64,000 nucleotides of DNA from positions 238,020 through 302,019 of the forward strand of contig JACJYZ010000004.1 of assembly GCA_020635855.1 (NCBI GenBank), in the 5' to 3' direction. The position numbers and the translations under genes are program-made. This document shows positions 21,286 to 59,115 of the stretch, piece by piece (positions within the stretch are counted from its first letter, which is position 1; each line of letters begins with the position of its first letter). The notes beneath the pieces were generated by a model. The model ran no database searches and was not told where the DNA came from. It was given only the letters and a program-made list of their open reading frames with translations. Source of the stretch: Flavobacteriales bacterium. Lineage in GTDB: Bacteria > Bacteroidota > Bacteroidia > JACJYZ01.

Positions 21286-21295
21286 TCAGATCACG
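21281..21295. repeat. 15-bp palindrome (cgtgatc-a-gatcacg) containing the abutting stop codons of convergent gldB-like and paaE
   Basis: Direct reading. gldB stop TGA is at 21283-21285. paaE stop (reverse-complement tca) is at 21286-21288. Confidence 0.6.
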
Positions 21296-37381: not shown

Positions 37382-37934
37382 AAGGTTTGATGATCTTAGC
37401 CAGCATCAATAGTTTGGAACTGATGCGGATCTTTTTCTGATCCGCCGTGACCTTGTTGATTTGGAAGCCATATTTGGATTGCCTGTTGGAGAAATTAATG
37501 ATGCCCCCCAGCTGACAGAACTCTTCGATTTCATCACCAACCGTCAGCACCGGTTTGTTTTTCACCATGTCCAGGATTTCCCTTATCCTCAGCCGTTCCG
37601 ATCCTGAGACAAAGAGGATGTGACACTCCCCTACATCCCGCCATTGCTGGTAGCGTTTTACCTGCCATGTTCTGCCATTGGTGGTGCGCCCTTTAACAAT
37701 GTTGTCAAGCACCTCTCCGAAAGGGTCATCACCCACCACAGCTATAATAATGGGAGATTCCGGGGTTTCAAAAGCCTTCTCAGGCCAATCCACAAATTTT
37801 CCGAAGTTAAAGAGGAAGGCGGCTTTGACCTCATATTCAGAATAGGTCTGCGCCTGCAAACGCTGGAAGAAAAGCATTCCAAAAAGACTCATCAGCAAGA
37901 TGATCCGCATCCGGTATGTGGTGGTACGTATCAT
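37371..37934 (-). CDS. YfiR-like (DUF4154) periplasmic protein
   Basis: Signal peptide. YEVKAAFLFNFGKFVDWP is the typical DUF4154/YfiR start. It overlaps the kinase start by 11 nt and the upstream OmpA-family gene stop by 4 nt. Confidence 0.7.
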   Translation of the reverse strand: MIRTTTYRMRIILLMSLFGMLFFQRLQAQTYSEYEVKAAFLFNFGKFVDWPEKAFETPESPIIIAVVGDDPFGEVLDNIVKGRTTNGRTWQVKRYQQWRDVGECHILFVSGSERLRIREILDMVKNKPVLTVGDEIEEFCQLGGIINFSNRQSKYGFQINKVTADQKKIRISSKLLMLAKIIKPYGS

Positions 37935-40348: not shown

Positions 40349-40368
40349 GCAGAGGGTGGGATGGGGCT

Positions 40369-41718
40369 TTAGTGCTGGGATGATTTTTCAGCCTGTAACA
40401 TACGATACAGGGTTGATTTACCAATGTCCAGTTTTTTGGCTACAAGCAATACATTTTGATCATAGCGTTCAAGGTAATGCTTTATGATCATTTCCGTGTA
40501 TTGCTTAAGCGTCATATTATCTTCCAATAATGATTTCGGAGAACGCATGGCATCCAGGTTCAGGTCCGATGCTTCCAGTACATCTCCATTGCTCATGACC
40601 GCAGCCAATTCAACGGAAGCCTTTAATTCACGGATGTTACCCGGGAACCCGTATGCCATTAGTTTTTGTTGTGCTTCCGGAGAAATGGTCATTTTCTTCA
40701 GGTTGTTTTCCTTGCAAAAGGTATCCAGGTAATGGCGCGCGATCAATATGATATCATTTCCCCTATCCCGCAAAGGAGGTAACTGAACGGGTAAGCCCAG
40801 AAGCCGGTAAAACAAATCTTCCCGGAAGCGCCCTGCCTTCACCTCTTCGAGCAGGTTCCGGTGGGTGGCCACCAGCACACGTACATCCACTTTCACTACT
40901 TCATTGCCACCTATGCGTGTGATCTCTTTTTCCTGGAGTACCCTCAACAACTTCGCCTGCATGTTCAGGTCCATCTCTCCGATCTCATCCAGGAAGATGG
41001 TACCCTGATGGGCTTCTTCAAATTTACCGATCCGCCTGGTATGTGCACCTGTAAAGGAGCCTTTCTCATGGCCGAACAATTCGCTTTCCATCAGATCCGC
41101 GGGGATTGCGGTCACATTCACCGCAACAAACGGTTTCTTTTTGCGGGAAGAATTATAGTGGATGGCTTTTGCAACCAATTCCTTTCCCGTTCCGGTTTCG
41201 CCGGTGATGGAAACCGTGATGTTGGTTTCCGCAGCTTTCTTAATCAATTGATGGATTTTGTGAATGGCGTCGCTGTCGCCAATGATGTTCTTATCCGCCA
41301 CATATTTCTTCTCCACCTCTTCCTGAAGGTGATGTACCTGTTCCAATAATTCCTGCTTTTGGGAAATGTTGGATAACGTGATCCACAAACGATCCTTGGT
41401 GGAATCATCTTTCACCACATAATCAAACGCCCCGCTTCTCAGCAGTGAAACAGCGGTTGAAATATCTTCCTGGGCGGATACGATCACCACATCCGTTTCC
41501 GGGCTGGTAGAACGAATACGTTCAAGGATCTGTGCACCTGTGGTACCGGGCAGGTTATAATCAAGCGTGACCACCTCAGGTTTTTTCGGAAGTGCCTTAT
41601 ATAAGGAAGGCGCGTCATGAAAGATCGTTACCTCATGATCGGGATTCAGCAGAATCAAATGCTGAAGGAACCGTGCGTAGACGGGATCGTCTTCTACAAT
41701 GAAAATTCTCATAACCAA
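40369..41718 (-). CDS. Sigma-54-dependent response regulator (NtrC family: REC + AAA+ sigma54 activator + Fis-type HTH)
   Basis: REC (IVEDDPVYARFL). Walker A GETGTGKE and GAFTGA (GSFTGA) motif. C-terminal HTH. Confidence 0.9.
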   Translation of the reverse strand: MVMRIFIVEDDPVYARFLQHLILLNPDHEVTIFHDAPSLYKALPKKPEVVTLDYNLPGTTGAQILERIRSTSPETDVVIVSAQEDISTAVSLLRSGAFDYVVKDDSTKDRLWITLSNISQKQELLEQVHHLQEEVEKKYVADKNIIGDSDAIHKIHQLIKKAAETNITVSITGETGTGKELVAKAIHYNSSRKKKPFVAVNVTAIPADLMESELFGHEKGSFTGAHTRRIGKFEEAHQGTIFLDEIGEMDLNMQAKLLRVLQEKEITRIGGNEVVKVDVRVLVATHRNLLEEVKAGRFREDLFYRLLGLPVQLPPLRDRGNDIILIARHYLDTFCKENNLKKMTISPEAQQKLMAYGFPGNIRELKASVELAAVMSNGDVLEASDLNLDAMRSPKSLLEDNMTLKQYTEMIIKHYLERYDQNVLLVAKKLDIGKSTLYRMLQAEKSSQH

Positions 41719-44177: not shown

Positions 44178-46277
44178 ATGAAAAGATTCTTACCCCAGGT
44201 TCTGGCGTTGTGCCTATTAATTATGCATCCGGTTGTCGCGCAAGAGTATTATCCATGTGGGACATGGGAGGCCGTGCGAAAATCATTGACTGAACATCCC
44301 GAGTTGGCGCAAATGCAGGAACAATTGGAAGCCTTCACAGCCGATTGGGTGAAAGCACATCCTCCTTCATCCAAGCGCTCCAACGGCACACCCCTGTACA
44401 TCATTCCGGTGGTGATTCACATCATTCACAACTACGGCACCGAGAACTTTCCCGACGCACAGGTGTATGATGCCATCCGGATCATCAACGAAGATTTCCA
44501 GAAAAGGAATTACGACACAACCTCGGTCAGTCCCAGCTTTAAGAACCTGATCGCCGATGTTCAGGTAGCGTTCAGGCTGGCGCAGATTGATCCGAACGGA
44601 AACTGTACCAACGGCATTACACGCACCGCATCGGTCATCACCTACAATGCCGACAATGACGTTGCCATCAAATCGCTGGTGGTATGGAACACGAGCATGT
44701 ACCTCAACGTTTGGGTGGTTAACAACATACCGGGTGCCGGCGGATATGCCTACTATCCCGGCACTACCCAACCGTCCAGGGAAGGAATCGTGATCCGGAA
44801 TACGCAGTTCGGAAGCATTCTCACCAGCCTCAGCGGAAACCTGTCTGCGCGATCCCTCACACATGAAGTCGGTCACTATTTCAACCTCCGGCACACATGG
44901 GGAGATTCGAATACACCGGGCGAGGCCGGTAACTGTAACACCGATGACCTGGTAGACGACACACCGAATACCATGGGTGCGAACTTAACCTGCGATCTCA
45001 ATGAGGTTACATGCGGCAGTCTCGACAATGTGAACAATTACATGGATTATTCAGGATGCGGCAGAATGTACACGGAAGGACAAAAAACCAGGATGGATGC
45101 GGCCCTCAACAGCACCGTTGGCTCCAGAAGCAATTTGTGGAGCAATACCAACCTGATTGCCACCGGTACAAACGACGGGTATGTGGGTTCTGTTTGCGCA
45201 CCCATAGCTGATTTCCGGCCTACGGTTCGTTTCCTTTGCGCGGGTGACTCCATTTCATTCAGCCACACGTCATGGAATGCCACAGCCGATAGCATCACCA
45301 CCGAATGGACATTTCAGGGGGGCACCCCCGGCAGCAGCCAGCTTGAAAATCCTTTTGTGCTTTACAACACACCCGGCGTATACGATGTCAAAGTGAAGGT
45401 ATCCACATCAGGTGGGGCAGACAGCATCCTGTCAACAGGCATTGTGCATGTGATGGAGGATACCGCCCAGATGAAAGCGCCGGCGGCCCAGGACTTCCAA
45501 TCGATTTCTTTTCCCGACGCGAACTGGTTCAACCTGAGCGAAAGTGTTTCTGCCAATGAATGGACACTGACAACGGCTGCATCCGTCAGCGGAGACAAGA
45601 GTATTCGCATCGACAACTACAACAAGGGAAGCGAAGCCGAAGAGTCGTCATTTGTGACGCCTACTTTCGATATCAGCGGCCTGACATTACCCAACCTGAC
45701 ATTCCAGCTGGCTTATGCCCAACGCACATCTTCCGATGGAGACAAATTGCAGGTATATGCCAGCACAGATTGTGGCAAAACCTGGAAGCTGCGGTACACG
45801 AAATCCGGTTCGCTCCTGAACACGGCCTCCGGAGTCAAAGCGAGTAGCTTCGTTCCCAATGCCAGCGAGTGGCGGGAGGAAACCATCAGCCTGAACTATG
45901 CGGTAGGTGCCTCCAGCATCCGTTTCAAATTCGCCTTCACCAGCAACCTGGGTAACAACATCTATATCGACGATATCAACGTAGATGGAGTCAACGGCAT
46001 CAATGATGCATTCGAACGTTCACTGGGATTGCAACTCTACCCGAATCCTACAGGAGATGCTTCCTATCTTTCATTCAAACTGGAAGGTAACCGGGAAGTA
46101 GAGATATGGACCACGGACCTTACCGGAAAGCGGGTTGCATTGAATATGCCATCAACAAATATGGCCTCCGGTATACATGGAATGTGGCTTGCCAATGAAG
46201 GCACCGGCGGTGTGTACCTGATCCACGTAAGGGTAGACCACCGTGTGGTTGTGCGGAAATGGATGAAGATTTATTGA
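44178..46277 (+). CDS. Secreted M43-family (cytophagalysin/pappalysin-like) zinc metalloprotease with a T9SS type-A C-terminal sorting domain
   Basis: Signal peptide. HEVGHYFNLRHTWGD zinc-binding motif. C-terminal LYPNPTGD... Por-secretion tail. Confidence 0.8.
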   Translation: MKRFLPQVLALCLLIMHPVVAQEYYPCGTWEAVRKSLTEHPELAQMQEQLEAFTADWVKAHPPSSKRSNGTPLYIIPVVIHIIHNYGTENFPDAQVYDAIRIINEDFQKRNYDTTSVSPSFKNLIADVQVAFRLAQIDPNGNCTNGITRTASVITYNADNDVAIKSLVVWNTSMYLNVWVVNNIPGAGGYAYYPGTTQPSREGIVIRNTQFGSILTSLSGNLSARSLTHEVGHYFNLRHTWGDSNTPGEAGNCNTDDLVDDTPNTMGANLTCDLNEVTCGSLDNVNNYMDYSGCGRMYTEGQKTRMDAALNSTVGSRSNLWSNTNLIATGTNDGYVGSVCAPIADFRPTVRFLCAGDSISFSHTSWNATADSITTEWTFQGGTPGSSQLENPFVLYNTPGVYDVKVKVSTSGGADSILSTGIVHVMEDTAQMKAPAAQDFQSISFPDANWFNLSESVSANEWTLTTAASVSGDKSIRIDNYNKGSEAEESSFVTPTFDISGLTLPNLTFQLAYAQRTSSDGDKLQVYASTDCGKTWKLRYTKSGSLLNTASGVKASSFVPNASEWREETISLNYAVGASSIRFKFAFTSNLGNNIYIDDINVDGVNGINDAFERSLGLQLYPNPTGDASYLSFKLEGNREVEIWTTDLTGKRVALNMPSTNMASGIHGMWLANEGTGGVYLIHVRVDHRVVVRKWMKIY

Positions 46278-46621
46278 GCATCCTCCGGCTTCGAGAAACC
46301 GCTCTTGTCAGCAAAGTGTGCGCAATAATCGCGCAGGTCTTCTGCCAGATTTCTCTCACCCGTCGCTTTTTCCAGGGTATCGGCAAGTGAAAGCAAGGTC
46401 TGGAACATGAACACCTTCATGTCATCCACCAACATATCTTTCGTCCACAGATCTATTCTCATGGCATTGCCATCCTGAGGGTCCCACATGGACATGATCA
46501 TGGCTTTGGCGCTTTGCTCGTTCTCCATATCGGCATCCGTTGCTTGCCAGCTAATGGTATCCGGCACCTGGTTTTCATCCAGTCCAACTTTAACAGTGAT
46601 CTGTGACTCTTTCTTCTTCAT
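46271..46621 (-). CDS. gldC: Gliding motility protein GldC-like
   Basis: 116-aa protein with the pattern LDENQVPD...WQATD...AKAMIMSMWD...MRIDLWTKDMLVDDMK, recalled as characteristic of GldC. Assignment from memory. Confidence 0.6.
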   Translation of the reverse strand: MKKKESQITVKVGLDENQVPDTISWQATDADMENEQSAKAMIMSMWDPQDGNAMRIDLWTKDMLVDDMKVFMFQTLLSLADTLEKATGERNLAEDLRDYCAHFADKSGFSKPEDAQ

Positions 46622-46687
46622 GGCGCAAATGTAAAAAGAAACGGCCGGGCAGATGCCGGCCGTTCGGATTTCTTCGCGGGAAATGTT

Positions 46688-48880
46688 TTAGTATTTGGTT
46701 TCTCCGATCACCTTTTGTTGCTGATCCGTTACCTTGAATGCCGTGCGGCGGTTTTTCTGGTGTTCCTCCTCAGTGGTGGCATTCTGAATCAGCAGTCTGG
46801 TTTCACCATAGCCATGTGGTTTCAGACGTTCTTTGGGTATTCCTTTATCGATAAGATAGTGCACCACCGAATTCGCACGACCCTGAGACAACTTCAGGTT
46901 GTATGAATCACTTCCACGGGCATCGGTGTGAGAACCAATTTCCACGGTGATGTCATCATTCAACTGAAGGAAGTCAAACAGGTCATCCAGTACTTTTTTC
47001 GACGCCGGGCGAAGGGTGGTATCATTGTAATCATATTCGATACCTGGAATTTCGATGTCATCCGGCGGGATGGGTTCCAGGTAGAAGTCATGGGTGAATT
47101 CCGTTGACTTTGTAATGTTCTCGGTAGAAAGGGAAAAGGCATCTGCAAAGAATTTTACCTTCTGTGCTTTCGAGAAATATTGAATGTCTTCAATCAGCGT
47201 GGTGTTGTACTGACCCTCTTCATTGGTGATGATGAAAATGGGCTGAATGCCTTCCTTCACATCGGTGATCTGCACCAGGGTATTGGGCATCTTCTCCTGC
47301 GTATTGCGGTTGAAAACCGTTCCTTTCATGGTGATGAGGAGTGGTTCGGCCTGCACCTGGTAGATCTTGTAACAAAACAGGTCTTTGTTGTCTTTACAGC
47401 TTTCACAACTGTCGCGGTCGGAAGTCATGAAGCCGGTGCGGCCTTCCATGCGATCCACCACAAAGAACAGATCATCCTTGCCGGAATTGAAAGGACGACC
47501 CATGTTGATGGGACGCAACCACGTGCTATCCTGCCCATATGACCTGAACACATCCAATCCTCCCAGGCCGGTATGACCATCAGAACTGAAGTACAGCGTA
47601 TTGTTGATATGATGCAGGTACGGGGTTACCTCGTTTTCGCTGGTGTTGATCACCGACCCCAGGTTCTTGGCTTCGCCGGCATTGCCGAATTCATCAATCG
47701 GTGATACCCAGATATCCATTTTCCCGTATCCTCCCGGGCGATCGCTGGCAAAGAACAGGCGGTCTTCTTCAGGTGACAGGGCAGGATATTTGGAGGAATA
47801 TCCCTGTTGGTTGATGTTTTCGTTCAACTTCATTGGCAGCAACCACTTTCCGTTCAGGAAGCGGCTGAGATAGATGGCACATTCCCCTTTGCCATCGCAT
47901 CTGGTGAAGTAAAAGTGTGAGCGGTCAATGGAAATCACGCCGGCACCTTCATTGCCTTCGGTGTTCACCGGTCGACGCATGTTCTTGGGTGTTTGCCAAT
48001 TTCCGCCTTCCTGATCGGTCAGATAAAGATCACTGGTGATGGTCGGGTCATCGTTTTTCTCATCGAGCACCACGTTGTCTTTGCGTCCACTGGCAAAAAT
48101 GATCACGCCTTCATCGTTATAAAAATTGGCACCGAAACTGGATGTACCGCCGTTGATCACCGTATCCATGAGGTTTACTTCAGCCTTGGGCCTAGGTTTC
48201 TGATGCGATTCTGCAAATGCCACATTGAACAACTTCTTCTGGGCCAGTTGCACGATGGTGTTATCGGTTCCGTCGTAGGTTTCTATGAACTTCTCCAGCT
48301 GAGCCTGGGATTCGGGATACTTCTCGTTGTTCATTAACACCATGGCATAATTGTACCGTGCGAACGGATGCCGTTTGGATTCGTTCTGCACAGCCTTTGC
48401 ATACCACTGTTCGGCTTTTTTATACTGATAAGAAAGTCGGAAACAATCTGCAATCTGGTGAACCACATATTGATATTTGCCATAAACGAGGTTGCCGCCT
48501 TCGGCGTCGATAGGCTGATCACCGGTTGTCGGGTTGGCTGCATCGGGTTGAGGTGGCACGGTGTCACCCTGCTGTCGCATGAGGCTATCGAGCTGGGTAC
48601 TGTCGGGTGCTTCGGTGGCTGCAGCCGGTTTGTTTTCTTCCTTATCGGGTTTGATGTACGCCACAACTTCGTATGGATACACGGTACTTTCTTCATCCAG
48701 TGTACCCTCGTCCAGCACTTTCAGGTAGAACTTGGCAGCGGAGGCATAATCACCTTTCTTATAAGCTTCATCGCCGTAATAAAGCCATTCACGCTTGCTT
48801 TGTGCCTGGCTTTGCAGTGCACTGAAACAAAACAGTGTGGCAAACAGATATAGCAGGGAAATTCTCACAGTCGCGGGCAA
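46688..48880 (-). CDS. PorE-like OmpA-family protein (TPR + TolB-type beta-propeller + OmpA_C), paralog of 37931..40348
   Basis: Signal peptide. TPR (YYGDEAYKKGDYASAAKFYLKVLD). Propeller blades (LSPEEDRLFFASDRPGGYGKMDIW, NNTLYFSSDGHTGLGGLDVF). OmpA_C (EIGSHTDARGSDSYNLKLSQGRANSV). Start overlaps the PorP/SprF stop by 16 nt. Confidence 0.8.
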   Translation of the reverse strand: MPATVRISLLYLFATLFCFSALQSQAQSKREWLYYGDEAYKKGDYASAAKFYLKVLDEGTLDEESTVYPYEVVAYIKPDKEENKPAAATEAPDSTQLDSLMRQQGDTVPPQPDAANPTTGDQPIDAEGGNLVYGKYQYVVHQIADCFRLSYQYKKAEQWYAKAVQNESKRHPFARYNYAMVLMNNEKYPESQAQLEKFIETYDGTDNTIVQLAQKKLFNVAFAESHQKPRPKAEVNLMDTVINGGTSSFGANFYNDEGVIIFASGRKDNVVLDEKNDDPTITSDLYLTDQEGGNWQTPKNMRRPVNTEGNEGAGVISIDRSHFYFTRCDGKGECAIYLSRFLNGKWLLPMKLNENINQQGYSSKYPALSPEEDRLFFASDRPGGYGKMDIWVSPIDEFGNAGEAKNLGSVINTSENEVTPYLHHINNTLYFSSDGHTGLGGLDVFRSYGQDSTWLRPINMGRPFNSGKDDLFFVVDRMEGRTGFMTSDRDSCESCKDNKDLFCYKIYQVQAEPLLITMKGTVFNRNTQEKMPNTLVQITDVKEGIQPIFIITNEEGQYNTTLIEDIQYFSKAQKVKFFADAFSLSTENITKSTEFTHDFYLEPIPPDDIEIPGIEYDYNDTTLRPASKKVLDDLFDFLQLNDDITVEIGSHTDARGSDSYNLKLSQGRANSVVHYLIDKGIPKERLKPHGYGETRLLIQNATTEEEHQKNRRTAFKVTDQQQKVIGETKY

Positions 48881-49890
48881 TTGGGTGCGGGATCAGGTCT
48901 TTTCTTCTCCTGGATCCAGGTTAATGAAATCTCGAAACCACCCCTTCCGGTTGTTGCTGCTTTCAGGGGGGAAGTATTAATGTCATAGCTTACCCGCACG
49001 ATGTAATCATCGTACTTCATACCAAGTTCCATGATCGCAGCATCGTCTTTTCTCCAGGTAGGCGCCACGATCAGGTAAGCATTTTGTTCCGACAGGTAGT
49101 AATGCATGACCAGGGTCGTGGTCAGTTCATTGTCGTTGGTCTGGTTCTGCATCCAGGCCTTCGGCGTGAGTTGCACTTTCTCGCTTAGGTTGAGTTTCAC
49201 ACCACCATGGACCACATGCCGCATGGGAAGGAAATTGGAACCGTTGAAGAATGTTTCTTTGGGTTGGTTCAGGTGAAAACCTGCATAACCTATGAACGGA
49301 TTGATCCGCTTGCTTTCCCCACTGATGAAGTACACCACACCCACACTCACATCCATCATGTTGATGGAAGAAGAACCCAGGTTTTCTCCCATGGATACCG
49401 TAGGGTCAAACCCACCTTCATTGCCGGTAATCCGGTACTGTTCATCAAAGGTAAGCTTTGAAATGTCAAAACTCTTTTGGATAAATCCCAGCTGTGCACC
49501 TACGGAAAGGCGTCCGCCCGCACGTTTGGTTCCGGTGATCAGGTCATATGCTCCGGATACGTTAAAGCGGAACTCATTGAAATTACCTGCTCCGGCCCGC
49601 TGGTTCATGATTTGGGCTCCCAGTGAGAATCCATCCTTCATTTGTCTGTCACCTGATAACAGGGTGGTGACATAGGGATTGTCTGCAATGGCCTTCCACT
49701 GTGTACGGTAATGCCCGTGGATGCGCATTCTTCCATTGAATTTACCCGTAAGGGCGGGATTCAGATACATGGGAGGTGCATCGTATTGTGACAAGTGAAT
49801 ATCCTGAGCATTTACAGACAAGGATGCCGTCACAAACAGAGACACCAATACCGTTCCGGCTAAAAGCCTGATGTGATTAAATTGACGCAT
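48865..49890 (-). CDS. Type IX secretion system membrane protein, PorP/SprF family
   Basis: N-terminal AQDIHLSQYDAPPMYLNPALTG is the PorP/SprF hallmark. Immediately downstream of a type-B-CTD cargo gene. Confidence 0.85.
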   Translation of the reverse strand: MRQFNHIRLLAGTVLVSLFVTASLSVNAQDIHLSQYDAPPMYLNPALTGKFNGRMRIHGHYRTQWKAIADNPYVTTLLSGDRQMKDGFSLGAQIMNQRAGAGNFNEFRFNVSGAYDLITGTKRAGGRLSVGAQLGFIQKSFDISKLTFDEQYRITGNEGGFDPTVSMGENLGSSSINMMDVSVGVVYFISGESKRINPFIGYAGFHLNQPKETFFNGSNFLPMRHVVHGGVKLNLSEKVQLTPKAWMQNQTNDNELTTTLVMHYYLSEQNAYLIVAPTWRKDDAAIMELGMKYDDYIVRVSYDINTSPLKAATTGRGGFEISLTWIQEKKRPDPAPNCPRL

Positions 49891-49899
49891 GGTAAGTCT

Positions 49900-52800
49900 T
49901 TAACGCAACAAGGTCAGATCTCCTTTCAACTCGTACCGCTGACCATCTTCCGATACAACTTCGGCGATATATACGTAAACGCCCATAGGTTGTTCGATTC
50001 CATCCCTTGTTCCATCCCATCCATTCTCCTTACCCTGCATGGTTGTAAGGAAAATCAGCTCTCCCCAGTTGTTGTAGATCCGCAGTTCGTGGGACTTAAA
50101 CGGTCCCCCGCGGATGTAAAACTTGTCATTCACACCATTGTTGTTCGGCGTAAATGCATTGGGAATTGCCGGAGGCATGAAGACCTCGAGAGTTTTGATG
50201 ATGGTATCTTTACAACCATTCGCATCTGTTACGATGAGGGTAACGCTGTATACGCCTATCTCATCATAGTTATAAGAGGGGTTTTGAACGCTGGATGTGC
50301 CGGTAGAATCACCGAAATCCCAGAACCAGGATACAATCCCGCCCGTTGAGAGATCAGTGAACTGAATGGATTCACTTCCTTTCAGCAATGTTTTATCTGT
50401 CTGGAAATCCGCATGCGGAGGAGCCAGTACGGTCACACTGCTTGTTACAGTGTCTTTGCAACCCACATTGGTGGTCACAATCAACTCAACCGGATAGCCG
50501 CCGTTGGTCGGATACACATGAATCGGATCACGCAATGAAGACGTATCCCCGTCGCCGAACTGCCAGTACCAGGCAACCACCGAATCACCTCCCATGACAA
50601 GGGTCGTATCGATGAATGTGACGGGTTCACCCAAACAACCGGGACTTACAATGAAGTCGCCCTGCGGCAGCGGGTGGATGTATATGTCTTTGGAAATGGT
50701 GTCCTTACATCCCTTGGAATCCGTGGTGATCAGGATCACGTTATAGGTCGACTGCACCTCATACGTGTGCGTCGGGTTCTGTTGGGTGCTTGTATAACTG
50801 TCACCAAAATTCCAACTCCAGTCGGTGATGTTGCCAAGTCCGTTGGTAGAGAGATCCGTAAAGAATGATGTATCCTTTTCGCACGCTTCATTGGAAGTGA
50901 AATCCGCTGTCGGTCCCTGAATCAGCACAATGTGTGCTGTATCCATAACTGACCTACAGTATCCGTTATCCGACGAATGGAAGATCAGTTCCACAAATCC
51001 CAAACCATCATCTGCCGCACTTGGGCAGTAGAACGGATTGTTCACAGTGTTGTTCGGAACGAAACTGCCGGTGCCAGCTGTGGTCCAGTAACCACTGCCC
51101 GTGGTTGTATTCACGGCCAGCGGGATGCATACACCCTCGCACGATGAATCGGCGGAGGTGATGTTCACCACCGGTTTATCCAATAATTCCAAGTATACGG
51201 AATCGGAAACCGACAAACATCCGTCGTTATGCGTGGTCATTACATACAACCATACACTGTTTCCGTTGAGGTCATTCGTGCCGGGAATGTATTTAACGAA
51301 TACAGCAGAATCGTTCGGATCAAATGTTCCGTCTCCACTGGTCAACCACTGCACGCCTCCTGCTACTGAAAATGTTGCGAAGAAATCAATGCCCGACGTG
51401 TCCTTACATGCGACCATGCTATCCGGACCAGCATCTACGGTGGGTGCCGGAGTGAAATTGATCCGGATGGAATCCGTGTCTGCCGGACAGTAAATTGTAG
51501 ATGGAGCAATCAGGATCACATCTGCAAAACCATTGGTGATCTCCGTTGATGTAGGTGAGTACACCGGGTTCATTATTGTGTTGCTGGGAGAGAACAAGCC
51601 TGATCCATTCCAGAAACCGCCCGTTGTGTTGATAACGGTACCTGTCAGTTGAACATCGGCATTGTTGCTGCAGGATGAAGTATCCGCTCCGGCATATGCA
51701 TCGGGTCCGCTGACCAGCGTGATGTACATGGAATCCGTTACAGCTTTACAAAGGCCGTTGTTATCGCTGGTAAATACAAGCGTTACAAATCCGTTGGCAT
51801 TGTCGCCGGGGCCGGGCCAGTAATCAGGGTTGTTCACACCGGCGTTTGGTTTGAACACACCATCACCCAAGGTAGACCAAAGCCCACTTCCCGTTGAAAT
51901 GTTCACACTCACCGGAAATTCGATGCCGGCACACGTTGTATCGGATCCGATGATTTCCACTACAGGTATATTGATATACCGCACACGCATGCTGTCCACA
52001 GCCGGATTACAATCTCCGTTACCGGTGGTGGTCAGGTAGAACATGATGCTGTCCAACGCCAGGTCTGCCGAATCTGGAATATAGCATACAGTCAGGGAAT
52101 CCGGGTCAGGATTGAAGGTGCCGCTTCCGGTGGTGGTCCAGTGCCCGCCTGTGGCAACGCCGACAAGCCCGGAAAGACAAATCATGGAAGTATCTTTACA
52201 AACTGCCATCGTATCATCACCCGCATCAGCGATCGGGCTTGGCGTAAAGGTGATATGAACCGTATCCGTATCTGCCGGACACAGGCCATTCCCCGTTGAA
52301 ATCAAGAACACATCGGTGGACCCATTGCTGATTTCCGCCGGTGTGGGTGTGTATGTGGTGGGCAAACTGGTGGATGTATTGAAAGTTCCTGCCCCGCTCC
52401 ACATTCCGCCGGTGGCAAACATGATGGTGCCATTCAGCCAGGTATCCGCATTGTTTGAACAGGCGTTGGTATCCGCACCGTTTGCTATGGGGTAAGGCTG
52501 GGCATAAATCACCTTTGTAACCGTATCCTGACAACCGAATCCCGATGTGGCTATCAGTGAAACCGTATAGCTTCCGCTATCGGCGTAGAGGTGATACGGA
52601 TTCTGGATGTTGTCCGTACCTCCATCTCCGAAATCCCAATCCCACATCACGATGGAATCGTTGGGAGATGTGGTTGAATTGTCATTGAACTGAATGGGAA
52701 CACCCACACATGCTGAATCCACGGTTGATGTGAAATCTGCAGAAACAGTTCCGAAATTGATGGTTTCATAGGCAGTATCCGCACAAGCTGTTCCGGGTTG

Positions 52801-53883
52801 AATGATCAGTCGGGCTGTGTATGGACCCAGGCCGGGATAGGTGTAAGCCGGCGGGTTCCGAACAGATGAAACATCTGTGGTGGATGTCGGGTCTCCGAAA
52901 TCCCATTGATATCCCTGTGCAAATGTATCGCTGAGGTTGATGAGGGTAACGGGTTGAGAAGAACATGGGTCAACCGGGCCGATATCGGCTTTCGCCAGCG
53001 GTGGACAATCGACTACATTGAACTGAAAATCGCGAACGATGTAACCGAGCCTGACCCCGTTGCGGTATTCGGTACATTTTACACCAACCACGTATTGACC
53101 TGCATCGGGCGGGATGCCATCCAGAAATCCGTTGGCATCAATGGTTAATCCACCTCCACCCATCGGGTTGCTGGCATTATAGCCGCCGCTCCACGTAACC
53201 GAATTGAAGGACGCAGTTGTGCCGGAAATGGTCGGATAGTTTTGCGGACAATCAGGACCAGCCACCTGTTGCGGTGTATTGGCACATCCAAGGTAAGGTG
53301 AGTAAAAACTGTACACCAGAGAGTCTCCATCCTTGTCACTGGCAAGGTGCGGAAACTGGATGGGTTCATTCCGGCAGACAAAGATCGGGGGGAAATTCAC
53401 GAACTGCGGACTGCTATTGGTCAGGATCGACGCATTGTTCGGTATGTATGTGTAAAAGGTTTCCCCCGCCTGATCGGGATTATTAATGTTATTAATCGAA
53501 GCGTTCCGGCAACAACGCTGGTAAAAAATATGATACCCACCCGTTCTCGGTGGCAGGTTGTTCACCACTTTGGTGTAAATCCCTTCCTCCACGCAGAGAT
53601 TGGGTTTGGTCACGCAGGTATCCACAAACGGATCCAGCACCGTAGCTGATACAAACGGGATGCTGATGTTCATTACATCGCCCCCGGAAGAATTGAGCAC
53701 CTCCACAATGGCCGGGTCATCAAAGGCCGCCTGACCTGCCAAACAATCGCGATACAATTTCAGGGTAATGCGGTAAGATGATCCCCCCAAATGCTCATAT
53801 GTCAACGATCCGCCAACAATGTGAGTCGCAAATACCCCCGCAGGGATAATCAAGATTAACAATCCCAGAATTAATTTTCGCAT
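49900..53883 (-). CDS. Giant (1327 aa) T9SS type-B cargo: repeat-rich cell-surface adhesin with PKD domains and SprB-type C-terminal sorting domain
   Basis: Signal peptide. Multiple PKD-like units (WDFGDG...NP.H.Y...G.Y.V.L). Many Cys-containing Ig-like repeats. C-terminus PNAFTPNNNGVNDKFYI...NNWGELIF...GWDGT...G.YVY matches the gliding-motility-associated (type B) CTD. Confidence 0.85.
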   Translation of the reverse strand: MRKLILGLLILIIPAGVFATHIVGGSLTYEHLGGSSYRITLKLYRDCLAGQAAFDDPAIVEVLNSSGGDVMNISIPFVSATVLDPFVDTCVTKPNLCVEEGIYTKVVNNLPPRTGGYHIFYQRCCRNASINNINNPDQAGETFYTYIPNNASILTNSSPQFVNFPPIFVCRNEPIQFPHLASDKDGDSLVYSFYSPYLGCANTPQQVAGPDCPQNYPTISGTTASFNSVTWSGGYNASNPMGGGGLTIDANGFLDGIPPDAGQYVVGVKCTEYRNGVRLGYIVRDFQFNVVDCPPLAKADIGPVDPCSSQPVTLINLSDTFAQGYQWDFGDPTSTTDVSSVRNPPAYTYPGLGPYTARLIIQPGTACADTAYETINFGTVSADFTSTVDSACVGVPIQFNDNSTTSPNDSIVMWDWDFGDGGTDNIQNPYHLYADSGSYTVSLIATSGFGCQDTVTKVIYAQPYPIANGADTNACSNNADTWLNGTIMFATGGMWSGAGTFNTSTSLPTTYTPTPAEISNGSTDVFLISTGNGLCPADTDTVHITFTPSPIADAGDDTMAVCKDTSMICLSGLVGVATGGHWTTTGSGTFNPDPDSLTVCYIPDSADLALDSIMFYLTTTGNGDCNPAVDSMRVRYINIPVVEIIGSDTTCAGIEFPVSVNISTGSGLWSTLGDGVFKPNAGVNNPDYWPGPGDNANGFVTLVFTSDNNGLCKAVTDSMYITLVSGPDAYAGADTSSCSNNADVQLTGTVINTTGGFWNGSGLFSPSNTIMNPVYSPTSTEITNGFADVILIAPSTIYCPADTDSIRINFTPAPTVDAGPDSMVACKDTSGIDFFATFSVAGGVQWLTSGDGTFDPNDSAVFVKYIPGTNDLNGNSVWLYVMTTHNDGCLSVSDSVYLELLDKPVVNITSADSSCEGVCIPLAVNTTTGSGYWTTAGTGSFVPNNTVNNPFYCPSAADDGLGFVELIFHSSDNGYCRSVMDTAHIVLIQGPTADFTSNEACEKDTSFFTDLSTNGLGNITDWSWNFGDSYTSTQQNPTHTYEVQSTYNVILITTDSKGCKDTISKDIYIHPLPQGDFIVSPGCLGEPVTFIDTTLVMGGDSVVAWYWQFGDGDTSSLRDPIHVYPTNGGYPVELIVTTNVGCKDTVTSSVTVLAPPHADFQTDKTLLKGSESIQFTDLSTGGIVSWFWDFGDSTGTSSVQNPSYNYDEIGVYSVTLIVTDANGCKDTIIKTLEVFMPPAIPNAFTPNNNGVNDKFYIRGGPFKSHELRIYNNWGELIFLTTMQGKENGWDGTRDGIEQPMGVYVYIAEVVSEDGQRYELKGDLTLLR

Positions 53884-53969
53884 AACCTTTTTGGTACGTC
53901 CGCTGTAAATATTGATGCAAATTAGAAAAAAACCAAATATAAAGATAGTGATTTTTACTTCGGTTTCAT

Positions 53970-53977
53970 TACTTTTG
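53970..53977 (+). promoter_or_regulatory. Candidate -7 element (TActTTTG) for the 1380-aa type-B cargo gene within a 159-bp AT-rich divergent intergenic region
   Basis: Matches the Bacteroidetes -7 consensus TAnnTTTG about 65 nt upstream of the ATG. No clean -33 TTG was found. Confidence 0.25.
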
Positions 53978-54042
53978 GTAAATTGTAGGTACCGTGTTTA
54001 CTATACTTTCTCGTATTACAAAACTTACTAATTAACACTTCT

Positions 54043-57000
54043 TTGCTGAAAACCATGAGCCTATTCAGACTCCTCCTTACGTTAGTTTTGTCAATTGTGT
54101 TCGGTTCTGTTGCCATTTCGCAAACCGAATTGAAGTGGGCCACACGCTATGCCGGCTCAGGAGCTGCGGTGGATCGCGCCGCAGACATGGTCATTGATGC
54201 CAGCGGCAATGTGTACGTAACAGGTACGGCCACGGGTTCGGGTTCGCCTAGCAGCTTGGACTACCTGACGGTCAAGTACAACAATGCGGGTGTACAACAA
54301 TGGGCCAAGTACTACAACGGCAGTGGGAATGGTCTTGACGAAGCCAGATCGATTGCAGTGGATGCCAGCGGCAATGTCTATGTGACCGGAATGAGTTATG
54401 GCTCAGGCACAGATTATGACATCGTAACCATTAAGTACAACAGCGCCGGCACCCAGCAATGGTCGGCCCGCTACAACACAATCTCTGCCAATTTGAAGGA
54501 TGAAGGGTACGATGTGAAAGTGGATGGAAGCGGAAATGTTTACGTAACAGGCGCAGCCGTTCCATTTGCCCAAACAGAGACCGATGTTGTCACCATCAAA
54601 TACAACAGTTCAGGAACACAGCAATGGGCCACCACCTACGATGGCAATGGCAACGGAACCGGGGATGACGGCGGTTATGCGCTCGCCCTGGATGCAAGCG
54701 GTAATGTGTATGTAACCGGATTCAGTTACTGGAACGGTGCACAAGACTACAATGTGGTTACCCTCAAGTACAACAGTTCCGGTGCTCAGCAGTGGGCCTC
54801 GCAATACAACGGACCGGGCAGCGCCTACGACGCCGGTTTCGCCATCACCCTGGATGGAAGCAACAATGTGTACGTGGCGGCTCAGGCCCTGAAAGACGGT
54901 GTGATCAATTTCGATATCACCACCATCAAATACAACAATGCAGGCACCCAACAATGGGTGAAGCAGTTCGGCGGTGATGCTTCCGACATTGACAAACCCA
55001 ATGACATCAAGGTGGATGCCAGCAACAACGTCTACGTAGTAGGAAAAGCGATCGGTACAGGTACCGGGGAAGATTACGCCACACTGAAGTACACCTCCGC
55101 AGGTACCCTGAGCTGGAGCTCCATCTACAATGGCAGCGGCAACGGTTACGATGAAGCAAAGATGTTACAGATCGATCCGAATGACGGAACCGTATATGTG
55201 ACAGGTTACAGCAACAACGGTGCTTCTTCTGCAGATTATGTTACCTTGAAATATGATAATACCGACGGTAAGCAGCTCTGGAAAGTGGCCTATAACGGCC
55301 CTGACAATCTCTCCGACCAAGCTGTGGCACTTGCTGTGGACAATACCTACAACGTGTACGTTTCCGGATATAGTTTCGGCACCAACACGACCACCAAAGA
55401 AGATTACGCCACGCTGAAATATTGCCAGTACAGCAGCAACATTTCAGGAAACGATACCATTTGTGCCGGTGACACCACCCAACTGAGTGCTTCCGGAGGA
55501 ACAACCTATAGCTGGAGTCCGAGCACCGGGCTGAGCGACCCAAACATCGCCAACCCCAAAGCGTTCCCCAGCGTGACCACCACCTATGTGCTCACCGCTT
55601 CCAACAGCTACAATTGCACGGACATCGATTCCGTAACCATTTACGTAAACCCACTGCCCCAACCTACCATTACAGCCAGTGGCGACAGCAGCCTTTGCCA
55701 GGGTGAGCAACTCACACTAAGCACACAAAGCTTCGCATCTTACCTGTGGAGTTCCGGGAACACCACGTCATCCATTATCTCTGATACCACAGGGACCTTT
55801 ACTGTGACCGTGGTTGATACCAACGGATGCACCAATACTTCCGCATCCTACAGCATGATCGTTCATCCGCTGCCGACGGTAAGCGCAGGTACCGATACCT
55901 CCCTCTGTATCGGCGATACCATTCAGTTGAATGCATCGGGGGCCACGAATTACGCATGGACACCTTCCACGGGTTTGAGCAGCACCACCATTGCAAACCC
56001 GTTGGCACATCCTGTCAGCACCATCAAGTATTATCTGACCGGCACCGATTCGGTTACCACATGTTTAAGCAAAGACACGATTATGGTAACCGTAAATGCA
56101 CTGCCGGTGATCACCGCCAGCAACGACACCAGCATTTGTCCGGGTGATACCGCCCAGTTACACGCCACCGGCGGTACCCAATACCTGTGGACACCTTCAG
56201 GAACCTTAGATGACAACACCAGCTCCGATCCCAAGGCCGGGCCTGCGGCAACAACCACGTACTACCTGACCGTTACCGACAACAACCAGTGTTCGCGTAC
56301 AGAGAACGTGAAAGTAACCGTGTATCAAAAACCGGCACCGGTGATTTCACCCGCAGGTCCCATCGACAAATGCGAAGGAGAAAGCGTAACCCTTACATGC
56401 AACACATTCCCCAATTATCTTTGGAGCAACGGATCCACGTCCAAATCCATTACAACCGACAGCTCCGGCACATACAATGTAACCGTTACCGATAGCAAAA
56501 CCTGCTCGAATACTTCCTCGAACGTGGTTGTAACCATCCACCCCTTACCGGTTGTGGATGCAGGCATGAACGATACCATTTGCAAAGGTGACAGCATTCA
56601 ACTGAATGCCACCGGTGCCGACAGTTACTCCTGGTCGCCCGGCACAGGACTGAGCAGCACCAAAATCAGCAACCCGAAAACCAGCCCGCCCAGCACCATC
56701 ACCTACACGGTCACCGGTTCCGTTATGTTCGGTAGCCTGACATGCAAGAATACCGATCAGGTTTCGGTGAAAGTGAATAACCTGCCGACTGTTGCAACAA
56801 GCAATGACACGGCGGTCTGCCTGGGAGAATCCGCCAACCTGAATGCTTCGGGTGGAGTCAATTTCTCCTGGTCGCCAACCGGTTCCCTTGACAATCCCAA
56901 TATCAGCAACCCGGTTGCCACACCCACCGCTACCACCACCTACACGGTGACAGTGCAAGACACAAATTCATGTGCGAATACCGGAACCGTAAAAGTGACC

Positions 57001-58185
57001 ATTTACCCGCTGCCGACCCTTAATGTGGGTTCGGATATCGACTTTTGTGAGGGTGATTCCGCTAAGCTGACCGTAACCAACGGTGCATCATATCTATGGA
57101 GTACTGGTGCAACCACGCAATCCATTACGGTAAAAACAACCGGCACATACAGTGTAACGGTTACCGATAACCACAGCTGCAGCAACTCCGCTTCGGTGAA
57201 TGTTACCGTACACCCGAACCCGGTGGCCGATGCCGGTACGGACCAGAAAATCTGCCGTGGAACCAGCACACAACTCACTGCCACGGGAGGAGATCAGTAC
57301 CTGTGGTATCCTTCCGATGTGTTGGATAATGCCAATATTGCCAGCCCAACAGCAACACCCACGAAAGCAATCACCCTTTTTATCGTTACCGTCACAAACT
57401 CAACAACCGGATGCAGCAGCACCGATACCGTGAGCATCACAGCCAATACCCTTACGGGTGCAGATGCCGGACCGAATAAAAGCATTTGCCCGGGAGACAG
57501 TACACAGCTGAATGCATCAGGTGGAGACGTGTATTCCTGGACACCGGTTGCCGGATTGGATGATCCCAACGCCTCAAACCCAAAGGCATCACCTGCAAGC
57601 ACCACCTGGTACTATGTATTGGTAACCAACAGCACCACGGCAGGATGTAAAACCGATTCAGCAAAGATCACCGTGTATCCCACGCCATCCATAGATGCCG
57701 GTTCTACTACAACGGTTATCAAGGGAGACAGCACCCAACTGCAACTGATGGGTGATCTGACTGGAGCCACCATTCTCTGGACACCCTCCACATGGTTGAG
57801 TGCAGTGGACATTGCAGACCCCTGGTCGAAACCAACCGAAACCATTACCTACCATGTTAGCGTAATAAGTGCAAATGGATGTCCGGCATCTGACAGCGTG
57901 ACCATCGAGATCACGATTCCGAAACTTGTGCCGGAGGGAATTTCACCCAACCAGGATGGCAAGAATGACACATGGAAACTTGATTTCGTACAAACCCTTT
58001 ACCCCAATGCAATTGTCGAAGTATACGACAGATGGGGACTCCGTGTCTTCTATTCCAAAGGATACCCCAAAGAATGGGACGGCACTTATGAAGAAAAACC
58101 CCTGCCGAGCGGCACATATTACTATATCATCAATCTTGGAGATGGTTCAGAACCCATGACCGGACCGCTCACCATCATTAGATAG
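54043..58185 (+). CDS. Giant (1380 aa) T9SS type-B cargo: N-terminal SBBP beta-propeller repeats, about 30 tandem Cys-containing Ig-like (SprB-repeat-like) domains, type-B CTD
   Basis: Signal peptide. Repeated ASGNVYVTG...DY.T.KYN..G.QQW units (SBBP). Tandem units with C.GD..QL.A.GG..Y.W.P..GL (about 55420-57910). C-terminus PEGISPNQDGKNDTWKL...YDRWG..VF...WDGT...G.YYY is a type-B CTD. Confidence 0.85.
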   Translation: MLKTMSLFRLLLTLVLSIVFGSVAISQTELKWATRYAGSGAAVDRAADMVIDASGNVYVTGTATGSGSPSSLDYLTVKYNNAGVQQWAKYYNGSGNGLDEARSIAVDASGNVYVTGMSYGSGTDYDIVTIKYNSAGTQQWSARYNTISANLKDEGYDVKVDGSGNVYVTGAAVPFAQTETDVVTIKYNSSGTQQWATTYDGNGNGTGDDGGYALALDASGNVYVTGFSYWNGAQDYNVVTLKYNSSGAQQWASQYNGPGSAYDAGFAITLDGSNNVYVAAQALKDGVINFDITTIKYNNAGTQQWVKQFGGDASDIDKPNDIKVDASNNVYVVGKAIGTGTGEDYATLKYTSAGTLSWSSIYNGSGNGYDEAKMLQIDPNDGTVYVTGYSNNGASSADYVTLKYDNTDGKQLWKVAYNGPDNLSDQAVALAVDNTYNVYVSGYSFGTNTTTKEDYATLKYCQYSSNISGNDTICAGDTTQLSASGGTTYSWSPSTGLSDPNIANPKAFPSVTTTYVLTASNSYNCTDIDSVTIYVNPLPQPTITASGDSSLCQGEQLTLSTQSFASYLWSSGNTTSSIISDTTGTFTVTVVDTNGCTNTSASYSMIVHPLPTVSAGTDTSLCIGDTIQLNASGATNYAWTPSTGLSSTTIANPLAHPVSTIKYYLTGTDSVTTCLSKDTIMVTVNALPVITASNDTSICPGDTAQLHATGGTQYLWTPSGTLDDNTSSDPKAGPAATTTYYLTVTDNNQCSRTENVKVTVYQKPAPVISPAGPIDKCEGESVTLTCNTFPNYLWSNGSTSKSITTDSSGTYNVTVTDSKTCSNTSSNVVVTIHPLPVVDAGMNDTICKGDSIQLNATGADSYSWSPGTGLSSTKISNPKTSPPSTITYTVTGSVMFGSLTCKNTDQVSVKVNNLPTVATSNDTAVCLGESANLNASGGVNFSWSPTGSLDNPNISNPVATPTATTTYTVTVQDTNSCANTGTVKVTIYPLPTLNVGSDIDFCEGDSAKLTVTNGASYLWSTGATTQSITVKTTGTYSVTVTDNHSCSNSASVNVTVHPNPVADAGTDQKICRGTSTQLTATGGDQYLWYPSDVLDNANIASPTATPTKAITLFIVTVTNSTTGCSSTDTVSITANTLTGADAGPNKSICPGDSTQLNASGGDVYSWTPVAGLDDPNASNPKASPASTTWYYVLVTNSTTAGCKTDSAKITVYPTPSIDAGSTTTVIKGDSTQLQLMGDLTGATILWTPSTWLSAVDIADPWSKPTETITYHVSVISANGCPASDSVTIEITIPKLVPEGISPNQDGKNDTWKLDFVQTLYPNAIVEVYDRWGLRVFYSKGYPKEWDGTYEEKPLPSGTYYYIINLGDGSEPMTGPLTIIR

Positions 58186-58197
58186 AGACAGCAAAGT

Positions 58198-59115
58198 ATG
58201 AAGGCACTTAGATATTTGATACCGGCGGTGGTGGCATTTGGTTTGGCCGTCCCGGCTACAGCACAGCAATTGGGAAGCTACACCCAATACATGCTCAATC
58301 CTTACTCCATCAACCCAGGCGCAGCCGGATCCAAAGATTATTACCAACTCAGGCTGCATTACCGCAATCAATGGGTGGGTATCACCGACTCCCCGAAAAC
58401 ATATTCATTAAGCTATTTCGGGAGAAAGCCAAAAAATGAAAGGACCGGCCTGGGTGTAACCGTGTTCAGCGATAAAACAGGCCCCAGCAGCCGAACCGGA
58501 TTTCAAGGCACGTATACCCACCACCTCAAACTGGGTGAGAACCTGAAGCTCGGACTCGGACTCGGACTTGGCATGGTGAACTACAGCATCAACACCGGCG
58601 ATATCTACGTGAAGGACAAGGACGACCTGGTCTTTACCAACGGCAAACTCACAACCACTCAACCCGACGGGTCTTTCGGTGCATACATGTACAGCCAGAA
58701 ATTCTACCTGGGCTTTTCCGTACAACAACTGCTGGCAAGTAAACTCAACTGGGCCTATACCAACAGCAAAATGGCGGGTCACCAATTCATCATGGCCGGT
58801 TATAAGTTCAAGGTGAAGGATAAAATGATTATCGAGCCCTCCGTACTTGTGCGTCACGTGAAGCCGGTACCCATGCAGTTGGATATGGGCATCACCTTCG
58901 ACTACATGGACCGTGTGAAGTTCGGCGCCCAATACAGAACCAAAGATGCGGTTGCCATTATCGTCGGATACAACCTGAAACGCAAATTGTATTTCGGGTA
59001 TTCATACGACATGATCAACTCGGCACTGAAGTCGTATACCTCAGGCACCCATGAGATCATGCTCAGCTATCGGCTGGTTAAGATTGAAGAGGAAGAGTCG
59101 CAAATGACCTATTAG
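58198..59115 (+). CDS. Type IX secretion system membrane protein, PorP/SprF family (cognate of the upstream cargo)
   Basis: AQQLGSYTQYMLNPYSINPGAAG N-terminal hallmark. Starts 13 nt after the cargo stop. Confidence 0.85.
   Translation: MKALRYLIPAVVAFGLAVPATAQQLGSYTQYMLNPYSINPGAAGSKDYYQLRLHYRNQWVGITDSPKTYSLSYFGRKPKNERTGLGVTVFSDKTGPSSRTGFQGTYTHHLKLGENLKLGLGLGLGMVNYSINTGDIYVKDKDDLVFTNGKLTTTQPDGSFGAYMYSQKFYLGFSVQQLLASKLNWAYTNSKMAGHQFIMAGYKFKVKDKMIIEPSVLVRHVKPVPMQLDMGITFDYMDRVKFGAQYRTKDAVAIIVGYNLKRKLYFGYSYDMINSALKSYTSGTHEIMLSYRLVKIEEEESQMTY

Follow-up and report, generated by a model that had tools for sequence, protein, structure and literature searches.

Do four minus-strand genes lying close together in the 64,000-nt stretch of DNA analysed here (the window) form a single transcription unit, and is GldC a functional part of what that unit encodes? 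The first-pass annotation had answered yes to both, reading a type B adhesin, its PorP/SprF, a PorE-like OmpA protein and a GldC-like protein as one self-contained secretion-and-anchoring module. Our analysis points to another division of the locus: most probably, a three-gene operon of known type encodes a static wall-anchored adhesin, and gldC is a relocated neighbour with its own promoter. The ORF list agrees with the earlier description of the four genes and of their spacing, with 9 nt between the cargo stop and the start of the porP/sprF gene immediately downstream, and 66 nt between the PorE-like gene and gldC:

49900-53883, minus strand, type B CTD cargo gene, 1327 aa (ORF list and Pfam/NCBIfam matches)
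48865-49890, minus strand, gene of a PorP/SprF-family outer-membrane protein, 341 aa (TIGR03519, PF11751)
46688-48868, minus strand, gene of a PorE-like periplasmic protein, 726 aa from GTG 48868 (Pfam/NCBIfam matches, AF2 model)
46271-46621, minus strand, gldC, 116 aa (TIGR03515)

The identities proposed for the four products were confirmed by domain searches. The cargo, described as PKD-rich with a type B CTD, matches both CHU_C (PF13585, 58.5 bits for a cutoff of 27) and the TIGR04131 type B sorting domain (43.1 bits for a cutoff of 35), the CTD occupying residues 1240-1327 (bases 49903-50166). Its signal peptide is cut after AGVFA, and residues 20-300 form an uncharacterised cadherin-like head domain followed by PKD domains, six Ig-like repeats of about 90 aa each, four C-terminal PKD domains and the type B CTD; PKD_4 was found in five stretches (2.4e-71, Pfam). 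The next product belongs to the PorP/SprF family, as judged by TIGR03519 (176.5 bits, cutoff 90.55) and PF11751 (134 bits), and is presumed to act as cognate shuttle/anchor of the cargo's type B CTD. Finally, the gldC-like gene encodes a GldC proper, with 130 bits for TIGR03515 against a curated equivalog cutoff of 102.15 and 118.9 bits for PF19937.

The PorE-like gene had been reported to overlap porP by 16 nt, which requires the first TTG (48880) to be the start; the ORF would then run over 46688-48880 on the minus strand and encode 730 aa. From GTG 48868, start and stop codons overlap by 4 nt (GTGA), the N-terminus agrees with those of the orthologues (signal peptide end ...AQ/SKREW), and the product has the same length, 726 aa, as the public record P0121. 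Pfam detects TPR_2, PD40 and OmpA in this protein, and its layout comprises a Sec signal peptide, a TPR part, a beta-propeller (residues 230-506), a CRD-like beta-sandwich (512-599) and an OmpA_C peptidoglycan-binding domain (605-716, bases 46721-47056). The four domains are visible in the AF2 model (pLDDT 84.1), and homologues carry PF13620 CarboxypepD_reg. The top PDB match in Foldseek is PorE's C-terminal domain (6TOP, 39% identity), and TolB propellers are also among the matches. In OmpA-like domains, a conserved Asp and a conserved Arg are the peptidoglycan-binding residues. The stretch SHTDARGSDSYNLKLSQGRA of the PorE-like OmpA_C aligns to SHADRKGPDAYNLGLSDRRA of PorE, and D649 and R664 are invariant among 49 homologues, indicating that the Asp and Arg for predicted peptidoglycan binding are retained. 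Read by eye, the N-terminus MRISLLYLFATLFCFSALQSQAQ/SKREW contains no lipobox; its Cys lies outside a lipobox context and is missing from orthologues (e.g. ...VSTFAQ/SKREW), so that this PorE-like subfamily is apparently not lipidated.

Neither of the two internal junctions, cargo/porP and porP/porE-like, shows a terminator-like or promoter-box feature. The window and the related locus L001 share about 90 nt almost unchanged upstream of the cargo gene, against a protein identity of only about 65%. This region holds a Bacteroidota -7 box; beyond it lies a divergent second cargo gene with its own PorP/SprF gene:

53925-54015, minus strand, conserved region upstream of the cargo gene, in near-identity with L001
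53934-53941, minus strand, Bacteroidota -7 box TATATTTG, 50 nt before the cargo ATG
54043-58185, plus strand, divergent gene of a second type B cargo (cargo2) with SBBP, Ig_7 and CHU_C (Pfam)
58198-59115, plus strand, gene of the PorP/SprF of cargo2 (PorP2; Pfam)

The motif TAnnTTTG is enriched by position upstream of the genes of the window, where 11 of its 30 matches lie and 1.7 would be expected (P = 4e-7), but its total is at chance level (30 against 29 expected), which makes a single 8-mer match weak alone. Such boxes precede the cargo gene, cargo2 and gldC, and none precedes porP or the PorE-like gene. No PorE-like gene accompanies the cargo2-PorP2 pair. L001, L166/L167 and eight metagenome loci likewise have an SBBP/Ig_7 orthologue in divergent orientation to the cargo gene; these eight include L091, L092, L094, L095, L097, L102 and L148.

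At least 14 loci in which the orthologues are full-length keep the order cargo-PorP-PorE-like, their PorE-like proteins being 40-46% identical to that of the window; PorP is partly visible in five further, shorter contigs. The orthologous loci lie on metagenome contigs and in MAGs that bear the label Flavobacteriales or Bacteroidia. In 12 more loci a PorP2-like gene lies directly upstream of an about 30%-identical PorE-like paralogue. The 9-nt gap, the 4-nt overlap, the single upstream promoter region, the terminator at the 3' end (see below) and the kept order are all consistent with co-transcription of the three genes. Thus cargo, porP/sprF and PorE-like gene appear to make up one compact conserved operon that plausibly secretes the cargo and anchors it to the wall, and to this extent the proposed secretion-and-anchoring unit stands; its extension to GldC does not.

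We considered whether the PorE-like protein could instead be a general envelope component of the PorE/CHU_0125 type, serving the whole T9SS or outer-membrane integrity and lying here by chance. Its top NCBIfam matches are indeed CHU_0125_OmpA and T9SS_PorE, which share its four-domain architecture, and in P. gingivalis one PorE serves the T9SS and the sole type B cargo alike (PMC9143113). However, both scores are far under the curated cutoffs (349.9 against 620 bits for CHU_0125_OmpA, NF053607; 319.2 against 600 bits for T9SS_PorE, NF052230), and PorE is a lipoprotein (PMC9143113) whereas the PorE-like protein carries no lipoprotein signal. Moreover, full-length PorE-like orthologues always stand directly behind a cargo-porP pair, while about 40 distant loci (about 30% identical), likely true PorE/CHU_0125 types, have no adjacent porP. 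A further paralogue is also present in the window:

37931-40348, TPR/PD40/OmpA paralogue of the PorE-like protein

We therefore regard a general role of the PorE-like protein as unlikely, and a dedicated partner of the adjacent cargo-PorP pair as the better reading.

The spacer between the PorE-like gene and gldC differs from the junctions within the operon, as it contains two features that the first-pass annotation had not seen:

46630-46665, minus strand, intrinsic terminator (terminator scan and fold energy; hairpin 46665-46639)
46626-46633, minus strand, promoter-like box of the Bacteroidota -7 type, TACATTTG, at 4 nt upstream of the gldC ATG

The terminator starts 23 nt past the PorE-like stop and consists of a 10-bp stem (7 G-C pairs), a 7-nt loop and the interrupted T-tract TTTCTTTTT; it folds with -24 kcal/mol (z = -3.45), a value equalled by none of 200 shuffles. 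Perfect hairpins with T-runs occur at the same place in five orthologous loci (L089, L091, L148, L166 and L167). The box has no clear -33 TTG partner. In L001/L002 it reads TACCTTTG at the same 4-nt offset, while the rest of the spacer is unalignable, and none of 54 gldB-gldC loci has a -7 box within 12 nt of the gldC ATG. With the box at 4 nt from the ATG, the gldC mRNA would be leaderless or nearly so.

The genomic distribution of gldC was then compared with that of the PorE-like gene. Directly behind gldB in 51 of 80 species genomes, gldC is absent from that place in the window. Here gldB lies 25 kb from gldC and keeps its usual neighbours, and the gene that comes after it is a reductase gene on the opposite strand:

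20230-21285, plus strand, gldB, with the usual neighbours NadE and OMP_b-brl_2

In two Sphingobacteriales-type loci checked by Pfam (L041 and L036), gldC lies behind a DEAD-box helicase gene, indicating that its unlinking from gldB is not unique to the lineage studied here. The adjacency to a PorE-like gene was found only in the window and in L001/L002, which represent a single genome lineage. Outside this immediate lineage, gldC was not found within 6-9 kb of the PorE-like gene in any of 81 loci examined, and a PorE-like gene precedes gldC in none of 80 gldC loci of other species. Since synteny between the window and its close relative extends for about 20 kb to either side of the pair, retention by descent suffices to explain the adjacency.

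These results weigh against all four genes forming one transcription unit with GldC as a functional part of the module, for which we see little probability. The genes do share a strand, the gap is only 66 nt, and the adjacency is kept in a relative with about 65% identical proteins; the 54-nt spacer of L001, which has the same gene order, contains no hairpin, making co-transcription of gldC more plausible there. Intrinsic terminators are often leaky, and the one described here may allow read-through into gldC. On the other hand, the two genes are set apart in the window by the strong terminator and the conserved -7 box, and the adjacency is absent from the other loci and species compared. GldC has no signal peptide, its N-terminus having been read directly, whereas the periplasm and the cell surface are where the module works, so a structural role of GldC in the anchoring complex is unlikely. 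The separate terminator and promoter that the first-pass annotation had named as grounds for giving up the single unit are present, at the sequence level, as an intrinsic terminator and a promoter-like box in this spacer, and the claim that GldC belongs to the same transcription unit is not supported. We conclude that gldC is probably an adjacent gene, transcribed independently and outside the three-gene module.

The relocation of gldC to a place 3' of a static-adhesin operon could also have been adaptive, with read-through coupling GldC dosage to adhesin expression. Coupling would proceed by partial read-through of the terminator, or by absence of the terminator as in the relative. If true, this would hint at a part for cytoplasmic GldC in deciding whether cells adhere statically or glide, but we give this idea a very low probability. 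In another very unlikely reading, the hairpin would be an mRNA-stabilising or processing element, with gldC expressed by read-through or processing and TACATTTG a chance match, as the chance-level number of TAnnTTTG motifs, the lack of a clear -33 element and the interrupted T-tract would allow; against it, the box keeps its offset in an otherwise fully diverged spacer, occurs in no gldB-linked gldC, and hairpins with T-runs also close orthologous operons where unrelated genes come next.

The mechanism that we propose for the three-gene operon with an independent gldC is modelled on Fjoh_3952-3951-3950 of F. johnsoniae and on the PG1035-PorP-PorE complex of P. gingivalis. Transcription would probably run from the conserved TATATTTG region before the cargo gene to the hairpin after the PorE-like gene. 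The cargo, with its cadherin-like, PKD and Ig-like domains, would be exported by Sec and would cross the outer membrane after recognition of its type B CTD by the T9SS; the cognate PorP/SprF beta-barrel would then receive it and retain it on the cell surface. By analogy with the two models, the soluble periplasmic PorE-like protein would bind the PorP-like protein by its TPR/propeller part and peptidoglycan by its OmpA_C domain. The predicted outcome is an adhesin held statically on the wall and not one moving on the gliding track. Gene content, domain architecture, spacing, motifs and the distribution of synteny are direct observations, while the ends of the transcript, the protein complex and the static anchoring are predictions. 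As for gldC, it would have left its place behind gldB in the common ancestor of the window genome and GCA_020435415.1, and then landed downstream of the cargo-porP-porE-like operon. There, the -7 box in front of this cytoplasmic gliding accessory gene most likely drives its expression, giving an mRNA with little or no leader.

The importance of the locus is limited, as it adds one more conserved cargo-PorP-PorE-like example outside the model organisms. Its clearly delimited predicted transcript architecture and its apparently non-lipidated PorE-like subfamily could make it useful for tests of static versus mobile cargo. What the analysis offers above all is a negative result: annotation of gldC as a module member should be avoided, and its position here gives no basis for inferring GldC function.

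Operons of this kind are already described, as is the static-anchoring model. Five to six cargo-PorP-PorE-like operons are known in F. johnsoniae, and it was proposed that their type B cargo is held statically on peptidoglycan, the presence of a porE-like gene being thought to separate static from mobile type B cargo; pull-downs and microscopy exist for the homologues of P. gingivalis and F. johnsoniae (PMC9143113, PMC12618676). The closest parallel is Fjoh_3952-Fjoh_3951-Fjoh_3950, with the same tight order of type B cargo, porP/sprF-like and porE-like genes. Compared with the F. johnsoniae operons, the window cargo differs by its cadherin-like head with PKD and Ig-like repeats, the PorE-like protein is apparently non-lipidated, and the host is an uncultured Flavobacteriales lineage. 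In P. gingivalis, the same three protein classes form the PG1035-PorP-PorE complex (PMC9143113), and the window OmpA_C keeps the conserved Asp and Arg of OmpA-like domains and is 39% identical to that of PorE (6TOP). However, PorE and PorP of P. gingivalis are single-copy core T9SS components required by all cargo, whereas the window PorE-like protein falls short of the PorE cutoff, belongs to a set of several paralogues and has its gene beside that of its cargo. SprB-SprF likewise consists of a type B CTD cargo followed by the gene of its cognate PorP/SprF, a two-gene form reproduced exactly by the cargo2-PorP2 pair; in contrast to the three-gene operon, a porE-like gene is missing next to sprB-sprF, and SprB travels along the cell. 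Finally, with regard to the canonical gldB-gldC operon of Flavobacteriia, the window GldC is a bona fide family member and gldB retains its usual neighbours, but gldC follows an operon to which it is unrelated and has a promoter-like box of its own.

The first-pass annotation had claimed four consecutive minus-strand ORFs in this Flavobacteriales MAG, and these were found at exactly the following coordinates:

49900-53883, minus strand, cargo gene, 1327 aa
48865-49890, minus strand, PorP/SprF gene, 341 aa (TIGR03519, 176.5 bits, cutoff 90.55)
46688-48880 (from the first TTG), minus strand, PorE-like gene with TPR, PD40 and OmpA domains
46271-46621, minus strand, gldC, 116 aa (TIGR03515, 130 bits, cutoff 102.15)

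Profile searches place PKD_4 in five stretches of the cargo, which also carries a CHU_C domain (58.5 bits, cutoff 27) and, at residues 1240-1327, the TIGR04131 type B sorting domain (43.1 bits, cutoff 35). The annotated gaps of 9 nt and 66 nt were confirmed, while the 16-nt overlap of porP and the porE-like gene is true for the first TTG only. Taking the GTG at 48868 as the start of the PorE-like protein leads to a classic GTGA overlap of 4 nt and to a product of 726 aa, the length of the public record of this protein (P0121), and the N-termini of orthologues fit the same start. The predicted PorE-like start codon is corrected here from TTG to GTG 48868.

Neither a terminator-like nor a promoter-box feature was found at the cargo/porP and porP/porE-like junctions. 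A hairpin (46665-46630) lies 23 nt past the PorE-like stop, with a 10-bp stem including 7 G-C pairs, followed by TTTCTTTTT; its energy is -24 kcal/mol (z = -3.45), a value reached by 0 of 200 shuffles. Directly after it, 4 nt 5' of the gldC ATG, stands TACATTTG, which fits the Bacteroidota -7 consensus TAnnTTTG. Since the total of TAnnTTTG across the window is at chance level (30 for 29 expected), only the positional analysis carries weight: 11 of the 30 sites are correctly oriented and at most 150 nt ahead of a gene start, for 1.7 expected (binomial P = 4e-7). Such sites precede the cargo gene (TATATTTG, 50 nt), the divergent gene of a second type B cargo, cargo2 (65 nt), and gldC (4 nt), and none of the gene-upstream sites in the window scan belongs to porP or the porE-like gene. 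A scan with the sigma-70 consensus returned 3 sites for 11 expected; this consensus is uninformative for Bacteroidota, and TAnnTTTG was used instead. From these signals we infer a probable three-gene transcript, without internal signals and with a putative terminator after the PorE-like gene.

Exact-protein look-up led to the nearest relative, L001 (GCA_020435415.1), and an ENA contig (L002) is the same as L001 across the junction shown. The proteins of L001 are ~65% identical to those of the window, the order of the four genes is the same, and synteny extends ~20 kb on either side. Common to L001 and the window are:

divergent SBBP/Ig_7/CHU_C gene
GTPase gene and class V aminotransferase gene
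sigma-54 response regulator gene
second PD40/OmpA gene
DUF4154 gene and hybrid kinase gene

The L001 spacer between the PorE-like gene and gldC is unalignable to that of the window and the hairpin is absent from it; TACCTTTG is retained at the identical 4-nt offset before gldC. The two genomes share, almost unchanged, a block of ~90 nt 5' of the cargo gene that includes TATATTTG. This block is non-coding (about 53925-54015 in the window, about 2650-2735 in L001), the proteins being only ~65% identical, and it also holds a conserved ACAATTTACCAAAAGTAAT element that could be a regulator binding site. On its 3' side, gldC converges on a gene for a PKD-containing M43 metallopeptidase (44178-46277, plus strand; weak C-terminal Por_Secre_tail-like match, 24 bits, cutoff 27), the stop codons overlapping by 7 nt; because this gene is absent there in the syntenic L001, it is a recent insertion beside gldC. 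Further along the minus strand, at 35132-41718, genes for a YfiR-like DUF4154 protein, a CHASE8/HAMP/PAS hybrid histidine kinase and a sigma-54 response regulator are grouped with a second TPR/PD40/OmpA paralogue (37931-40348); the same set is found in L001 and perhaps forms a module for envelope signalling with no link to T9SS. At 10001-12155 the GC falls to 0.39, from about 0.52 in the flanks; this stretch encodes a 637-aa Schlafen AlbA_2 / HATPase_c_4 protein and is a candidate for horizontal acquisition.

Querying metagenomes with the PorE-like protein gave 79 loci. At least 12 of them contain a full-length orthologue (40-46% identical) with cargo and PorP orthologues before it and, in most cases, the divergent SBBP/Ig_7 gene as well; a partial PorP lies immediately 5' of the PorE-like gene in five shorter contigs, and a PorP2-like gene immediately 5' of a ~30%-identical PorE-like paralogue in twelve further loci. 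Two further loci with Pfam-annotated genes, L166 and L167, agree with this picture. The genes 3' of the PorE-like gene vary by locus, and a GldC match was found in none of the 79, many of which have 6 kb of downstream sequence. A perfect hairpin and T-run follow the PorE-like stop in L089, L091, L148, L166 and L167. The idea that the GTPase and aminotransferase genes are the ancestral 3' neighbours, gldC having been inserted, found no support, since what lies downstream in distant orthologous loci is unrelated.

We then considered gldC in 80 species-representative genomes among the matches listed, a set that includes neither the source genome nor its nearest relative. Among these matches, gldB is immediately upstream of gldC in 51 of the 80 genomes and a PorE-like gene precedes it in none; a DEAD-box helicase gene does so in both Sphingobacteriales-type loci checked by Pfam. 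No TAnnTTTG was found within 12 nt of the ATG in the gldB-linked gldC genes examined. The window has its own gldB:

20230-21285, plus strand, gldB (PF25594, 337 bits)

The usual neighbours on its canonical upstream side, NadE and OMP_b-brl_2, are present, and gldC does not follow it. In this region (17744-22374), an opposite-strand ferredoxin-reductase-like gene takes the place of gldC, indicating that gldC has left gldB in the lineage of the window. The adjacency of gldC to the PorE-like gene would be best explained as a local rearrangement, kept by descent in two syntenic genomes.

The best NCBIfam matches of the PorE-like protein, CHU_0125_OmpA (349.9 bits, cutoff 620) and T9SS_PorE (319.2 bits, cutoff 600), are both under cutoff and the protein thus belongs to neither curated family. 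Its AlphaFold2 model (49 homologues as input, pLDDT 84.1) consists of TPR helices with a disordered insert (residues 59-128), a beta-propeller (230-506), a beta-sandwich (512-599) and an OmpA_C domain (605-716), and the top PDB matches are 6TOP, the PorE C-terminal domain (39% identity), and TolB propellers. Its D649 and R664, which correspond to the characteristic Asp and Arg of OmpA-like domains that bind peptidoglycan, do not vary among the 49 homologues. No lipobox is present in the signal peptide (…SQAQ/SKREW), and the Cys is wholly missing in orthologues; this subfamily therefore seems not to be lipidated, unlike PorE. GldC, in which no signal peptide was found, is taken to be a cytoplasmic, accessory protein.

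The head domain of the cargo (residues 20-300; 52984-53826, minus strand) starts with THIVGG and has the motifs CCRN and DxDGDSLxY. Neither this domain nor the middle repeats matched Pfam even at E = 1, and PKD domains were the sole PDB matches of the cargo sequence. The head also occurs in proteins of ~460-490 aa, joined directly to a type B or type A CTD, and seems to represent a widespread, as yet uncharacterised domain of T9SS cargo proteins, cadherin-like in fold. The cargo2 locus (54043-59115, plus strand) encodes a 1380-aa type B cargo (SBBP, Ig_7, CHU_C) together with a PorP/SprF of its own, and lacks a PorE-like gene. Distant orthologues of this cargo (L166, 2173-4650; L167, 2138-4648) are ~830 aa long, with a type A CTD (Por_Secre_tail) and no PorP, which suggests that the CTD class, and with it the route of secretion and anchoring, was exchanged between orthologues.

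The first-pass annotation had interpreted the four genes as one self-contained secretion-and-anchoring module. The three-gene part is real, though already known; the membership of gldC is not supported, given the predicted spacer terminator, the promoter-like box and the lack of GldC in the 79 metagenome loci. Judged from sequence, cargo, PorP and PorE-like protein form a predicted conserved functional unit, and gldC is a putative neighbour particular to this lineage, carrying a promoter-like element of its own and divided from the operon by a predicted terminator in the genome of the window. Read-through into gldC may occur, more so in the hairpin-less relative. In a known case, Fjoh_3952 is apparently static and its anchoring by Fjoh_3950 was proposed (PMC12618676). 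Since the cargo-porP-porE-like arrangement has already been described for known operons, the locus is a further case of this operon type, and the adjacency of gldC is its only unusual element.
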